A stretch of 64,000 bases of DNA from Octopus vulgaris (taxonomy: Eukaryota): the NCBI GenBank assembly GCA_951406725.2, contig OX597834.1, forward strand, positions 10,788,001-10,852,000, in the 5' to 3' direction. Both the position numbers and the translations under genes were made by a program. Positions 1,253-54,522 of this stretch are shown here, in pieces (position 1 is the stretch's first letter; each line of letters begins with the position of its first letter). The notes beneath the pieces were generated by a model. That model saw only the letters and a list, made by a program, of their open reading frames with translations, had not been told where the DNA came from and made no database searches.

Positions 1253-1295
1253 CCACTACAATCGTTTCATGTCTTCAATGACATTCGTCAGGTGG
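1253..1295 (-). ncRNA. Type I hammerhead ribozyme, canonical core
   Basis: Minus strand: CCAC-CTGACGA-ATGTC(ATTGAA)GACAT-GAAA-CGATTG-TA-GTGG. Stem I CCAC/GTGG, 5-bp stem II, short near-palindromic stem III, GUA triplet. Lies in a ~165-bp insert (about 1161-1325) between TA tracts. Confidence 0.88.
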
Positions 1296-1375
1296 ATTTT
1301 CGATCTCCTAATCTGTTTTAATTTATATACATATTTATATATGTATATATATGTGTGTATATATATATATATATA

Positions 1376-3039
1376 TATGCATATATCTATGTTAACATGT
1401 GTGTATACATGACCCAAGTGAAAATACATATGTATATACACGCGTATATGTATATATACGTAAACACACACAAGAAGTCATTGCTATTCATATTGATATG
1501 CTATGCGTAATCACGATAATATACGATAATAGCAACAAACAAACTTTTGGAATAATGTTTGAATCTAACAACAGATTATTTTTCTCTCGACAAATCAACA
1601 ATGTAATCAATTTACTGCAGAAAAGATGGAAATGTAATGAAATAAATATTCGTATAATATAGCTTTCTCAAATTAACACGTATAAAACCGCTTCGTAGAA
1701 TTATCTCCACATATGATATCACCATTAAATGTAATATGCATAGCTATTCATCAATTCATGCAAGAACAAGCTGAGTGCTAGGCAAGCTACCTGTCAAAGT
1801 CTAACCATCTAAATTACCTAATACTTGCATTTAATAAGAAATGTAGATAGAGTGTACTGTGTAATCTAAGATATGCATAAAAGATACCTGGAGAGGTTTA
1901 GAGTCTAGTCCAAACCTATTTGGTTTGTGTTAGGATAGTGTTGAATAATATTTGCAAATATATTACAACGCCAACCAACTTCTGGCTAACAACGAAGCCT
2001 CTGCGTCACCATAAGACAAATGATACACAGCAGATAGATAATAAGTAGTGCTAGACAAAAATGGTAGAAATAAAAATAAATGTTTATAAACGTAACTTTT
2101 TCCCAGACCTGTGAAAACCTGGGCTATATGGTAACAGCAACTGCTGCAGCAACAACAAGAACAACAACAACAATAACTAACAGAATGATAAAGTGTTTTC
2201 TCCATTCAATCAACAGAAATTGGAACAATCTTCTGTAAGTTGCAGATGCAATCAATCATCTCTGACAATGAAATCCAAAATGAGAAATGTTAAAAAAGTA
2301 CCTGTTATGAAAACTGACACGCACACATATTTATGTATATTCGAAGAAAGATATGTACACACATGTATCCACAGAAATATAAGTAAGCGCAAGCATAACC
2401 ATACGCACACTCACGCAGCCGGTCACAATTATAATATTTACACATACACACACACACACACATAGACTCACACACACACACATATATATATAATGCTTAT
2501 TTAGGCTAATGCGTATATAGACGTTGATAGAATAACATTATATTGGTTGTCATATAGCGCATGATTTGTACATTGTAGTTTGTCAGAAATACATTTTAAG
2601 CTATCAATTAACATTAAATAATATTTTCACATATCGAAAGAGAATATAGCAAAGTCTGTAAAGATAACAATATATATATATATATATATATATATATATA
2701 TATATATATATATATGTATGTATATATATATATATGTATGTATATATATATATGTATATATATATGTATGTATATATATATGTATATATATATGTATATA
2801 TATATATATATATATATTTATTTATTCATTTATATATATATATATACATATATATATACATATACATATATATATATATATATATTTTATATATGTATAT
2901 ATGCATATATCTATGTTAACATGTGTATATACATGACCCAAGTGAAAATACATATGTATATACACACGTATATGTATATATACGTAAACACACACAATAA
3001 GTCATTGCTATTCATGTTGATATGCTATACGTAATCACG
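1376..3039 (+). repeat. Dispersed direct repeat, ~140 bp (1376-1515 and 2899-3039)
   Basis: ATATGCATATATCTATGTTAACATGTG...GACCCAAGTGAAAATACAT...GTAATCACG occurs twice with few mismatches, each copy after a TA tract. Confidence 0.9.
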
Positions 3040-3769
3040 TATAGCATATATTTAATTGCTATGAATGTGTTTTATTGTTGTTACTCGGGTGGAATTAACT
3101 AAGCTTTACAATCAAGTCTGATGACAAGTCAATCATATTTTTTAACAATCCATTGTTGAGAACCATATCTGTAATAAAATTATTTAACACCATCATCAAT
3201 CATTTCAGAAAGATATAAACATGTCGTTAAATCGTGGTATTTTAATGATATATCGGCATGTATTACATTCACTTTCACTTTTACTCTGCACAGTAAAATA
3301 AGAAAGAAAATATAAATACGTTATTCAAAAGTAGCTTAACAATATATTACAATATAGCAGGTGAAGTATATTTTACATTATGAAAAAATAATCGATACAG
3401 GATTACATCAACTTATCGTTAGATATGTTTATATATGTTTTTTTTTTTTTTGGCAGTAGACATCTAATAATGTGTATGTTATGTAATTATCTAAATTGAA
3501 GTAGGTTTTATGTTTAGAACACATTTCATTGTTACAGACATGCTTTACTGTATAAATACAATATAACACACACGCACGCAGGCACACGCATAAGAGTATG
3601 TAAGTTTCTGTGCACGTTTATGCACATGTAAATATCAAAGAATCTGAATAAGTGCTCAACAAGGCAATGGTGGATGAAGACTGTTTCTTTGTGAATAAAG
3701 AAAGCGAGTCTAGCATTAATCCACACACACACACACGCACGTATAAATATATGCATTATATAAACTGCA

Positions 3770-3865
3770 AGTATGCCGTTTGCGATTTCTTCTCCATCTT
3801 CGGACTTTTCCATTTCTCCTTCGCAACGAAGAGCTATGCTCGAAACGTTAAACTTTCTCCTTTTA
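3770..3865 (+). mobile_element. Decayed HHR-bearing element, same family as 48750-48960
   Basis: GCAACGA-A-GAGC(TAT)GCTC-GAAACGTT-AAAC matches the 48821 ribozyme with a damaged CUGA. Upstream CCGTT(T/G)GCGAT is also shared. Confidence 0.65.
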
Positions 3866-4595
3866 CTGAGCTCGAAGTCGACTTTGCCATTCATCCTTGT
3901 TTTAACTAGTACCAGTTGAACACTGCGGTCCATGAAATCAACTCATCTAAAATTGATACCCTTATGGCAAATTTGAAGCCATCATTAATATGATCTCTCT
4001 CTCACACACACACACACACGTACACACACACATACACACACACACGTATATATATATATATATATATATATATATATATATATATATATATATATATAGA
4101 TATATAGATATATGTATATGTATACGTATATATATATATATATATATATATACAATTACGAGAGGCTTCTTCAAGAAATAAAGAGTGTTGACTAAGCGGA
4201 GCGAGAGCACACACGTGAACAGGGAGTGTTACTGAAGAGTTTACAGATGTGTGATGAAATGTTTCCGGATAATAAACGAGAAAACAACAAATATAATGTG
4301 AGTGTTTATTCGAAAAAAAAAAGGAAAATATGTCTATCCCTAAATGCAACAATATCTGTTTTATCGCACGGTTTCATGCCAGGAATCTTGCAACACAAAT
4401 TTATAAACGCATATATAAACATGAGTAAGCACATAAATGCAAAACAACGAAGAGAAATAGTACTCGAATACCAAAGGTAGAATAACATGCCATTTTTTTT
4501 CATTATAGTAAAAGCATTATGTGATGTTTTTGCAGTTTTAATAAAGAATGTGTATATATATATACTCAGGCACAGACGTACACATACAAACACAT

Positions 4596-52164: not shown

Positions 52165-52298
52165 CTAGACTTATACACACCCTGATACCGTCTCTATCTA
52201 CATATCAAATTTGAGCGCAATCAGATGGAGGATGCCCGATATCCTAGAAGGCACACACACACACACACACACACACAGAACGGATTTTATATAATAAA
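52165..52298 (-). mobile_element. Helitron-like 5' end fragment
   Basis: Minus ATTTATTATATAAAATCCGTTC(TG)n...CTCAAATTTG resembles the 5' ends of non-autonomous Helitrons. Confidence 0.4.
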
Positions 52299-52693
52299 TT
52301 AGAGAGAGAGAGAGAGAGAGAGAGTGAAAGTAGACTATTTGAGAATCAGGTAACTCAGAAAGTGACATTTGCCATTTAAGCATTTACTCTCCCTAATGTC
52401 GTATGCTATGGTTTATAGCTGTTATATCCATTATCTCACATGATTAGTTATGAATTACCTAGGAAGTAATTTAGGGGCTTTCTTGTAGATATGTTTATAT
52501 CGCATCGCTAATTCCTGTCTTTTATTAATGATTTTATATTCTGACGTAATCCGTATAACAATAACCCTTCTAGGCAGAGTTAGCAAATATAAGTATAATC
52601 ACTCTAAATTATATTTTATTTTTAAATTCTAAGCTGTCAGATTAGCTTGCTGAGTGTAGTCACGTGTTATTTATTCGTATGGGTAAAAATTAC

Positions 52694-52992
52694 ACTCTAT
52701 TACTCTTTTACTTGTTTCAGTCATTTGACTGCGGCCATGCTGGAGCACCGCCTTTAATCGAGCAACTCGACCCCGGGCCTTATTCTTTTGTAAGCCCAGT
52801 ACTTATTCTATCGGTCTCTCTTGCCGAACCGTTAAGTGACGGGACATAAACACACCAGCATCAGTTGTCAAGCAATGCTAGGGGACAAACACAGACACAC
52901 AAACACACACACGCATACATATATATACATATACATATATACGACGGGCTTCTTTCAGTTAGCGTGCTAACGGTTCTGCCAGTTCGCTGCCT
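52694..52992 (-). mobile_element. Chimera: family C head (52961-52992) on a family B body and tail
   Basis: Plus strand ...CTTCTTTCAGTT|AGCGTGCTAACGGTTCTGCCAGTTCGCTGCC. Confidence 0.8.
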
Positions 52993-54463
52993 TTATTCTA
53001 ATAGTAAACGGCATTGTCTGTAACGAAGGAGCATCTATAGTAGTTGTTTTCGACCCTTTTTAATATCCGGGTAAGATCAAATACCTGGATTTTTTAAGGA
53101 GGCCGCACCGAAAAAAGTAAAACAGAAAGAAAATTAAGGAAAATTTATATTTGCAGAGGGAAGGCCGTCGGGGGTCAACGGAAAGATGCTTGAGGGACGC
53201 GGTGCAGGAGTTTATAAATTCTATTCACCATGTTCTTCCCGAGGTCATTGTCTAGTTTACGGACATTTATTCGGGAGTGGTGCATTCTAGCGAAACAAGT
53301 ATGTGCTGAAACTTCGAAATCTACATACATATATATATATATATATATATATATATATATATATATATATATATATACACAAAAAAAAACATACACATAT
53401 AAAAATAGGTACACATACACACACGAAAACAAACTATGAGTTTCTTTTTCCTTGTGATTTAGAATTGTTGCATCAAAGTTCTAGAGTTGAGAATTCGGTA
53501 GAAAAACACTCCAAAACATAAGACTCGCAACCACTGAGATTCGTTTGTGTGAGGAGATTTCTACCACTGTCTTAATTAACATTAACAAAACAAAAAAAAA
53601 GGTAAAGAAAAAGAGAAACAAAAAACGAAAAAGAAAAGAAACCAAAACTTTACATTCTAATTTCAGACATAATATAAATTACAATATTTATTAAAAGATT
53701 ACTTTAAGTAGGTTTTCTAACATCAGATGAAACAAAATTCAGGATAAACAAGTGCTGAGTGTTAGTCCAGATATCCTCTTTAGCTAAAAAGCAAATTTGA
53801 TCTTGTCAGGTTTTACAATGTTAAGATAGTAAGCCGGAACAAATATTGAAAGCATTGTGTTATTAGTTGTGGTGACCTTGCCAATTTGTCCTCTGTTTAT
53901 ATTTTATATTATCAGTGAATTATTAGATGTTGCTTGAAATGAAACTCAGTTGCAGCATTCTGTCCCTGTCCTACATGTGATTTTACATTTAATTATGAAT
54001 AAACGCATCAAGCCAAAGTATGACTCATACACTCATACATTGATGCTGTGTCATATTTCAGTTTAATTCATGTTCTTCCTCCATGTTCAGATTATTTGGT
54101 ACTGTTTTTATTTTTAATACTCTTTATATATATATTTCTCTGAACTGAGTCATAACTAATCTGAGATTCAGTATTCATCTGATTATATTTAGATTTTTCC
54201 TCTCTGATAGTTTTATAGCATAAAGGATACATCTCCTCAGAAATATGAAGCAATACGTTCATTTAGTGTATGATTTTACAATGCATTCTCAAGTTATACA
54301 TAATAACCTCCACTGGTTTTATTTATCGATATGGTTATGGATAAGATGTCTAATTTCGGCATATTTGGCATTCGAAATTTTTTGGTTTGCCCTTATTTAT
54401 AAGTTGTTTATATATATATATATATATTTATATATATTTTGTATTTATGTACTATCTGTGTAT

Positions 54464-54522
54464 ATTCCACTGATGAAGGCAGAGCATTTCTTACGCAGAG
54501 CCAGAAATCCGAGATCTGGAAT
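54464..54522 (+). ncRNA. Type I hammerhead ribozyme, canonical core
   Basis: ATTCCA-CTGATGA-A-GGC[19 nt]GCC-A-GAAA-TC(CGA)GA-TC-TGGAAT. 6-bp stem I and AUC triplet, just downstream of a TA tract. Confidence 0.8.

Follow-up and report, generated by a model that had tools for sequence, protein, structure and literature searches.

Minimal hammerhead ribozymes (min-HHRs) were described in the pseudo-LTRs of metazoan Penelope-like elements (PLEs) by Cervera & De la Pena 2014 (PMC4209133), whose supplement includes molluscan examples from Lottia and Crassostrea; the accessible part of the supplementary PDF holds no octopus example. The G10.1-C11.1 pair of these motifs is highly conserved, though it lies outside the requirements of the published descriptor. 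Retrozymes are a second relevant group, in which monomers occur and for which a PLE origin has been proposed (Cervera & De la Pena 2020, PMC7229834; Li, Clavereau & Pollet 2026, 10.64898/2026.07.22.740005). For Octopus vulgaris, PMC13282606 gives 31 recently active Penelope-like families plus an older PLE expansion, and ribozymes have 0 occurrences in what is accessible of that paper and of PMC8967140, both recent papers on octopus repeats. The giant squid genome offers a cephalopod precedent, with 235 annotated Hammerhead_1 loci; in the accessible part of that source (PMC6962438) these are Rfam counts only, with no tie to PLEs or TA tracts.

We analyzed a 64,000-nt stretch of the O. vulgaris genome (the window), for which an original prediction had proposed about 12 HHR loci at 13 coordinates. 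We found about ten supported hammerhead motifs in short non-coding inserts biased toward (TA)n. These inserts probably represent 3' ends left by 5' truncation in several PLE families, with full-length source elements that would lie elsewhere in the genome.

Hammerhead motifs in the window

The window was scanned with three descriptors. A strict version returned 4 matches, compared with 0.05 per shuffle (20 shuffles), and a version with a relaxed core returned 5 with a score of at least 9 (0.27 per shuffle, 30 shuffles). The final descriptor, tuned on the data in that its loop II limit was raised to 70 nt after the motif at 30313 had been spotted by eye, identified 8 HHR motifs at a score of at least 9, against 0.24 per shuffled window and a maximum of 2 (50 block shuffles). 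No match at this score was observed on either strand of the reversed window, a single control, as the complemented run is the identical set. Five of the 8 scan loci had been proposed originally (1253, 13810, 29548, 48821, and 54464), and 7286, 30313, and 32064 are new. Two further proposals are supported in another form: 3820 by its homology to 48821 (z 12.7; E 4e-6), and 6099/6146 as one foldback that lacks stem I. The supported loci are as follows.

1253..1295, minus strand: type I HHR that retains the core; stem I has 4 bp, stem II has 5 bp and an A-U closing pair, and stem III has 2 bp; TA tracts flank its insert (about 1165-1323)
3820..3857, plus strand: member of the 48821 family that has decayed, with 3 changes in the core and no remaining stem I; fails the descriptor alone
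6088..6277, no strand assigned: head-to-head foldback insertion between TA tracts, the one insertion behind the 6099 and 6146 calls
7286..7370, minus strand: type I HHR with intact core, new; stem I has 4 bp, stem II has 5 bp, an A-U closing pair, and a long loop, and stem III is palindromic; insert at about 7245-7540
13810..13860, minus strand: decayed HHR with 2 changes in its core, 7 bp in stem I, and 5 bp in stem II; adjoins a (TATG)n tract and no pure TA tract
29548..29607, plus strand: HHR in which G5 to A is the single change to the core; its three stems measure 5, 4, and 4 bp, and TA tracts flank the insert (29428-29771)
30313..30388, plus strand: HHR with one core change (U4 to C), new; stem I 6 bp, long loop II, stem III palindrome identical to that of 7286; insert 30206-30544, between TA tracts
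32064..32139, minus strand: HHR-like motif, new, in which G8 to C is the one change to the core; AT-rich, away from TA tracts; the least secure of the 8 scan loci
48821..48855, plus strand: minimal HHR that retains the core; a base is left unpaired ahead of stem II, the closing pair is G-C, and a 6-nt palindrome stands where stem III would be; its insert covers about 48750-48960 and ends at a TA tract
54464..54522, plus strand: type I HHR that retains the core; stem I has 6 bp, stem II has 3 bp and one additional A, and stem III has 3 bp; insert at about 54440-54762, a many-copy family

The core (CUGANGA, GAAA, and UH in type I order) is intact in four motifs, at 1253, 7286, 48821, and 54464. 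It is changed at the remaining supported loci, save for the plus arm of the 6146 foldback, where an intact core is accompanied by just 1 pair of stem I. A changed core or a missing stem I was thus found in 6 of 10 supported motifs, which is what neutral decay predicts. Where the proposed density was about one HHR per 5 kb, the window has roughly 1 supported locus per 6 kb and 1 intact motif per 16 kb. Across the 8 scan loci, stem I spans 4-7 bp, and 3-7 pairs were scored in stem II; stem I is missing at 6146 and 3820. Stem III is a perfect palindrome at 48821, 7286, 30313, 13810, and 32064, and a stem of 2-4 bp at 1253, 54464, and 29548. The G10.1-C11.1 closing pair is present at 13810, 29548, 48821, and 54464, with A-U, U-A, or U.U at the other four. 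Stem sequences vary from family to family, yet they still pair.

Motifs of this kind might arise by chance in AT-rich, hairpin-rich repeat DNA, and for part of the original set this explanation holds, as 4 of the 12 loci have scores typical of noise and a fifth is borderline. Rfam searches also returned little: a hammerhead family was found in none of three inserts searched singly (E<=10) and was absent among the 150 of 239 whole-window matches listed. Minimum free energy (MFE) z-scores were weak in 11 of 12 stretches and were left out of the supporting evidence because they did not separate hammerheads from shuffles. However, the excess over shuffled sequence, which the original prediction had named as a point on which it could fail, and the empty reversed control both run against chance. 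So does the recurrence of the 48821-type stem II/III motif at 85 metagenome loci from other organisms, which share only the motif; stem I forms at least 3 pairs at 51 of the 85, although it lies outside the search pattern. A chance origin is already refuted for the top loci, and is very improbable for the motifs as a whole. Separately, one candidate at 49485-49561 was discarded, since its score of 8.2 lies below the 8.3 attained in the reversed control. The whole-window Rfam output was dominated by microsatellites matching miRNA models.

TA tracts, copies, and foldbacks

Five of the 8 scan loci lie within TA-bounded gaps of at most 400 bp (background 7.8%; p 1.3e-4). At six of the 8, the 3' side has a TA tract no farther than 250 nt away (p 0.004), the exceptions being 13810 and 32064. 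For the 12 loci proposed originally, 10 are at most 200 bp from a (TA)>=5 tract (background 36%). The claim that most inserts sit at TA tracts is therefore borne out as a bias, but "most" becomes half, given that 6 of 12 loci occupy TA-bounded gaps of at most 400 bp (background 8%).

Three families have second copies inside the window (z 12.7, 9.5, and 7.8). The homology shared by 48821 and 3820 begins 70-80 nt upstream of the HHR, near the 5' edge of both inserts. Beyond the window, copy number was checked for a single HHR family, that of 54464. Positions 53700-55080 aligned to 1,046-2,547 contigs per run in all four runs (organisms A, B, D, and E), mostly less than 95% alike, and the summed depth on the inserts there, which is not a copy number, was about three orders of magnitude above the unique flank. 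This family is many-copy in 4 runs, and the possibility that its insert was single-copy failed. Nine of its 12 tabulated joints connect opposite strands, at positions that vary, and behind 54762 the loose ends continue as (AT)n in 22 records of X3 and 13 of X12. No empty allele was observed, in that no joint crosses the 54464 insert in the 4 runs when rows at the TA tract are excluded. Long flank contigs from X12 and X9 cease aligning at 54268 and 54282. The tail at 54311-54404 is thinly covered in run X12, and thin cover carries no meaning by itself.

The foldback at 6088-6277 has arms at 6104-6147/6148-6191 (44 nt, 98%) and 6088-6099/6192-6203, and, as read from the sequence, a tail of about 74 nt (6204-6277) on one arm only. 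The foldbacks at 6088-6203 and 26080-26168, with the one-sided tail at the first, match the inverted 5'-truncated copies of PLEs (PMC8557442). A DNA-transposon (MITE) reading of the foldbacks was rejected, because the junction between the arms falls at variable internal points and only one of the two arms carries a tail. Terminal inverted matches of 12-14 bp at 29548 and 20864 were excluded from the foldback tally.

The remaining proposals and related inserts are listed below.

12625..13004, plus strand: TA-bounded insert whose ends share a direct repeat of 65 nt (74%, period 270)
20872..20931, minus strand: possible HHR relic that keeps the left core box and a palindromic stem III but has a changed right box
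26080..26168, no strand assigned: foldback of the 1253-family 3' tail; 33-nt arms, 91%; truncated downstream of the HHR
26347..26402, minus strand: HHR call in doubt, with 3 changes in the core; the hairpin is strong, and the stretch folds with z -3.0, which speaks in its favor
29840..29921, no strand assigned: TA-bounded insert of 82 bp that holds a short inverted repeat; unsupported as an HHR
41604..41665, plus strand: doubtful HHR call; left core box only
54311..54404, plus strand: a distinct 3' tail, present in many copies, that runs up to a TA tract and shows homology to the tail of the 29548 insert

The calls at 12737, 26347, 29865, and 41604 fail, with scores of -2.6 to 1.6 that the descriptor does not distinguish from chance. 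That at 20864 on the minus strand scores 6.5, in the noise band, where shuffles yield 3.1 matches per window. Positions 12737-12775 may be a doubtful HHR relic, with stem II and the right half of the core kept and the left half missing. Twelve independent families, as originally proposed, were not recovered: four of the loci are not distinguishable from chance, 3820 falls within the 48821 family, and 6099/6146 represents a single insertion. Weak homologies between 1253 and 6146, 13810 and 41604, and 7286 and 30313 (z 4.7-5.4 among 552 comparisons, 25 shuffles each) are hints only.

Origin and activity of the inserts

The original observation that no RT or GIY-YIG ORF is visible in the window held, as truncated copies would lead one to expect. 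Neither tblastn with 26 PLE proteins nor their profile detected an RT or endonuclease remnant in the window, and a Pfam search of 150 of 484 stop-to-stop ORFs, comprising most of the longest and those near motifs, identified no RT or endonuclease, with only a Mos1 transposase HTH above cut-off. An indirect link to autonomous PLEs comes from the metagenome loci that carry the 48821-type motif. A PLE endonuclease match was found at 9 of the 85 and at none of the other 76; all 9 are on the same strand and end at most 1 kb upstream of the motif (3 of the 9 supplied queries). The endonuclease ORF sits in proteins with PF00078 in 20 of 26 homologues, and Pfam assigned no name to the endonuclease ORFs (0 of 57). 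An inverted copy lies just upstream at 21 of 78 metagenome loci, and (TA)5 was observed within 400 nt at 0 of 85.

By analogy with PLE biology, the RT and GIY-YIG endonuclease of full-length elements would have copied these tails into the window. The endonuclease would nick (TA)n, reverse transcription would start at the RNA 3' end and usually halt after 100-400 nt, and an inverted truncated copy would often be added. The HHR would travel with the copied 3' end because of its position in the 3' pseudo-LTR. In the source element it probably acts as a dimer between tandem pseudo-LTRs, trimming the precursor RNA, while dispersed single copies were likely dead on arrival and then decayed neutrally. 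We read the sequence diversity as probably reflecting many PLE families of different age, with no new class. Several points count against a PLE origin: no coding remnant lies beside the motifs in the window, most of the metagenome loci lack an endonuclease match and none has (TA)5 nearby, Pfam did not name the endonuclease ORFs, 4 of 8 motifs are without G10.1-C11.1, the one-sided tail is longer than published ones, and no empty allele was observed.

Some families could instead be fixed-length non-autonomous elements, monomeric retrozyme-like or SINE-like, derived from PLE pseudo-LTRs and replicating via their own RNA, perhaps circular, with a borrowed TA-targeting PLE enzyme. A coding remnant upstream of no motif would suit such elements, as would the start of the 48821/3820 homology near both insert edges, the roughly 1.2 units of a 270-bp period at 12625-13004, which resemble a more-than-unit copy of a circle, and the retrozyme monomers and PLE origin reported by Li et al. 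2026 (10.64898/2026.07.22.740005). Yet a tandem array of HHR units was found at none of the loci, the HHR of the 12737 partial tandem fails the descriptor, and the foldback joints fall at many positions, pointing to variable 5' truncation and against a fixed start. We consider this explanation unlikely overall; for some families it is compatible with truncated PLE tails. A bolder version is more doubtful still: several independent fixed-length non-coding ribozyme elements would have split from Penelope parents and placed thousands of copies into (TA)n, including an undescribed hammerhead subtype with a long structured loop II, a stem II closed by A-U or U.U, and a shared stem III palindrome. 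If so, dimers in trans could cut or circularize RNA in cephalopod cells.

The original prediction also held that intact copies could cut host transcripts. Selection might keep intact motifs for this, in a domesticated or regulatory role, and four intact cores in 64 kb, together with many genome-wide copies that would permit dimers in trans, are in its favor; the 3-bp stem III of 54464 makes a monomer fold possible. Against it, the predicted HHR-fold occupancy of the four intact motifs, in a model that ignores tertiary contacts, is 0.0003-0.005 alone and lower with flanks. Single min-HHRs show no cleavage and dimers only low activity (PMC4209133), the majority of copies are decayed, and no host exon was identified in the window. 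Given only 4 intact cores, in single copies with stem III of 1-3 bp, occupancy below 1%, and inactive published minimal HHR monomers (PMC4209133), the cutting claim is unsupported as written, any activity is predicted to be weak, and a selected host role is highly unlikely.

If the inserts are truncated PLE tails, the known association of min-HHRs with PLE ends would extend to the octopus genome at high density, and would offer a route to classify short "unknown" TA-flanked repeats missed by Rfam models. No concept is changed by the finding. If some families are non-autonomous and active, thousands of natural variants in one genome would make minimal-hammerhead dimerization and host-RNA contact testable.

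Comparison with described systems

What stands of the proposed diverse, TA-targeting ribozyme retroelements is several multi-copy, (TA)n-biased HHR families of Penelope-like kind. The motifs share with the min-HHRs of PMC4209133 the core boxes, a short stem I, a palindromic stem III region, and in some copies an unpaired base before stem II. The two also share high within-genome diversity and mostly single, dispersed motifs with opposite-strand pairs, so the suggested novelty in diversity is not supported; nor is that in targeting, as TA targeting with inverted copies was already reported in PMC8557442. Only the application to the O. vulgaris genome seems undescribed in the literature searched. 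The motifs differ from PMC4209133 in that 4 of 8 close stem II with A-U, U-A, or U.U rather than G-C, and three have 47-58 nt between core boxes.

Animal non-LTR retrozymes (PMC7229834; 10.64898/2026.07.22.740005) similarly consist of non-coding units, a few hundred bp long, that carry a type I HHR. However, they are defined by tandem HHR units and circular RNAs, whereas the window has no such tandem and one 1.2-unit partial tandem with a doubtful HHR. With the endonuclease-bearing PLEs Neptune and Naiad, which have an insertion bias toward microsatellites (Craig et al. 2021, PMC8557442), the inserts share 5' truncation, an inverted truncated copy, a one-sided tail, partial tandems, and (TA)n as the target, although the tail at 6204-6277 is about 74 nt compared with 30-40 bp in published PLEs. 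Naiads are without canonical HHRs and are present just as remnants in cephalopods (PMC8557442), and a C-terminal-endonuclease clade would therefore fit the inserts better.

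Hammerhead motifs in the window

The window is non-coding, repeat-rich and rich in TA microsatellites (149 TRF rows). We scanned it with a descriptor of the type I hammerhead ribozyme (HHR) comprising the core boxes, stems I and II, and either stem III or a palindrome, run in three versions. The strict version returned four matches (1253, 29548, 48821 and 54464, each locus being named by its start position) against 0.05 per shuffle. Allowing up to two core changes gave five matches at a score of at least 9, with 13810 added, against 0.27 per shuffle. A third version, with loop II of up to 70 nt, a limit raised only after 30313 had been spotted by eye, gave eight matches at this score, against 0.24 per shuffle and a maximum of two among 50 block shuffles; shuffled sequence therefore does not match as often as the window itself. 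The reversed window yielded no match at 9 or above with this last descriptor. An Rfam search of three single inserts did not list an HHR family.

The twelve HHR loci of the original prediction proved real in part, with five passing when scored singly, but were over-counted in some places and under-counted in others. The loci at 6099 and 6146 are two arms of a single foldback (44 nt, 98%), and they lack stem I because the foldback centre sits just upstream of the core. The score of 6.5 at 20864 is within noise, and 3820 fails the descriptor alone and is homologous to 48821 across about 110 nt. Scored as single loci, 12737, 26347, 29865 and 41604 were indistinguishable from chance and are possibly old relics. 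Three motifs had been overlooked, all found with the 70-nt loop II descriptor:

7286-7370, minus strand, HHR motif with intact core
30313-30388, plus strand, HHR motif
32064-32139, minus strand, HHR motif

About 10 HHR loci in the window are supported, four of which (1253, 7286, 48821 and 54464) have an intact core and all stems.

In half of the eight scan loci (4/8), stem II is closed by A-U, U-A or U.U, and in three of the eight the core boxes are 47-58 nt apart. At 1253, 6146, 7286, 20864 and 30313, stem II starts with A or U and ends in A-U directly before GAAA, which produces an A-U or U.U closing pair. The stem III palindrome is common to 7286 and 30313, and 1253 matches it except at one base. 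Judged from the sequence of single decayed copies, the A-U or U.U closure, long core-box spacing and shared palindrome may mark an HHR sub-lineage.

TA tracts, families and copies

Five of the eight scan loci fall in gaps no longer than 400 bp between TA tracts (background 7.8%, p = 1.3e-4), and for six of the eight a (TA)≥5 tract lies no more than 250 nt away on the 3' side (background 24.6%, p = 0.004), these statistics being binomials on one window with thresholds set by the analyst. An either-side test was weaker (p = 0.03 at 200 nt and 0.06 at 250 nt). The loci at 13810 and 32064 have no pure TA tract nearby. Independent support for TA targeting comes from run contigs, in which copies of the 54464 family elsewhere continue as (AT)n past 54762.

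Pairwise homology among 24 window segments (552 comparisons) was strong in three cases: 48821 matches 3820, a separate foldback at 26080-26168 matches the 1253 insert in its 3' tail, and the segment 54340-54406 matches the tail of the 29548 insert. Both insert tails terminate at a TA tract. Features identified in addition to the motifs are:

26080-26168, foldback formed by the 3' tail of the 1253 family, lacking an HHR and flanked by a TA tract and a GT-rich tract
54311-54404, 3' tail present in many copies, with homology to the 29548 insert (run contigs and pairwise homology)
12626-12690 and 12896-12960, partial tandem within a TA-bounded insert (65-nt direct repeat, 74%, 270-bp period)

For a copy survey, four runs out of the 24 listed, from organisms A, B, D and E and either DNA or without a stated kind, were aligned to 53700-55080 at 80% likeness. 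Each run placed 1,046-2,547 contigs there, mostly less than 95% alike, and the 54464 insert is therefore not single-copy. Contigs piled up on 54452-54780 and, in three of the four runs, also on 54311-54404, with a summed depth about 10^3 times that of the unique flank, a ratio that does not equal copy number. The strand switched at 9 of 12 joints examined, every one at a different place, which makes copies elsewhere foldbacks whose break points vary. An empty allele was not seen in these four runs. Loose contig ends before 54329 carry a different sequence upstream, similar to the right half of an HHR (agreement 0.74-0.79). Several short hairpins lie at 54520-54745, downstream of the 54464 HHR, the last (54716-54743) directly preceding the 3' TA tract.

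Several high-copy SINE-like families occur at many places in the window (e.g. 4600-4950, 8050-8480 and 49005-49420); one, with an internal TA/GT microsatellite, contributes part of the TA tracts. A local duplication was noted by eye at about 1340-1515 and 2890-3040, which may begin within the TA tract; the TA tract of the second copy is without the 1253 insert. Other repeats include a Mariner-type transposase remnant at 18385-18800 (Pfam Mos1 HTH match at 18385-18681, E = 3.9e-7), a second seen by eye at about 47250-47960, a tandem array at 55530-56097 (period 114-122 bp, hairpin units with TA cores), and a telomere-type (AACCCT)6.8 repeat at 24048-24088 within a SINE-like copy.

Probable association with Penelope-like elements

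Neither Pfam on 150 of 484 window ORFs nor tblastn and profile searches with 26 Penelope-like element (PLE) proteins found an RT or endonuclease remnant in the window, in line with the earlier statement that an RT or GIY-YIG ORF was not seen there. A pattern built from the 48821 motif, comprising the core, stem II and stem III but leaving out stem I, matched 85 metagenome loci, all from other organisms. Stem I, although outside the search pattern, forms at least three pairs at 51 of them. None (0/85) has (TA)5 within 400 nt, which makes TA targeting a trait of the families in the present genome and not of the motif. An inverted copy lies directly upstream at 21 of 78 loci. Three ORFs, 190-680 nt upstream of the 48821-type HHR, are read from their sequence as GIY-YIG endonucleases of PLE type that include a cysteine linker:

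L018:2079-3053, minus strand, putative PLE endonuclease
L056:808-1461, plus strand, putative PLE endonuclease
L006:3365-3940, minus strand, putative PLE endonuclease

Pfam named 0 of 57 metagenome ORFs, missing these at E 0.001. A further search with one of the three gave 26 longer homologues, of which 20 carry PF00078, which we take to be RT, and 2 carry PF01541, presumably GIY-YIG. Used as queries, the three ORFs matched at 9 of the 85 loci (3 being self matches), all on the motif's own strand and ending at most 1 kb upstream.

Origin, predicted activity and published systems

Observed directly were the motif, its bias to TA, the large number of copies, the foldbacks, a tail on one side only and the one partial tandem. 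The HHR inserts are very probably PLE pseudo-LTR debris with minimal hammerheads (min-HHRs); PLE membership lacks only a direct ORF link in this genome. A PLE endonuclease would nick (TA)n, and the RT would copy the RNA from its 3' end, mostly halting early and often adding an inverted second copy. The HHR would be carried along because of its location in the 3' pseudo-LTR.

The four intact motifs occur singly, with a stem III of 1-3 bp. In a model without tertiary terms, their predicted occupancy of the HHR secondary structure lies between 0.0003 and 0.005 for the motif by itself and between 5e-7 and 0.004 once 30-nt flanks are included. Cervera & De la Peña (PMC4209133) report that a single min-HHR did not cleave and that dimers cleaved at a low level; the dimer requirement is reviewed in PMC6765202. 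Given single motifs, short stem III, low predicted occupancy and the inactive published monomer, the cutting of host transcripts raised in the original prediction appears unlikely.

Our literature search on hammerheads with octopus or cephalopods, whose coverage excludes most subscription journals, did not find an HHR-PLE association in octopus. Penelope elements are described as abundant in octopus in PMC13282606 and PMC8967140, with ribozymes unmentioned in the sections available, and PMC6962438 gives a count of 235 hammerhead-1 loci for the giant squid. Retrozymes are defined as tandem units in the accessible portions of PMC7229834 and the Li et al. 2026 preprint; the window inserts differ in not being tandem units, and retrozyme identity was rejected by this criterion. 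Among PLEs, the accessible part of PMC8557442 reports truncated copies in inverted orientation, tails on one side and a microsatellite bias, with Naiads lacking canonical HHRs, while that of PMC4209133 places min-HHRs in PLE repeats, mostly as single motifs of extreme variability, thousands per genome, and includes opposite-strand pairs 100-700 bp apart.
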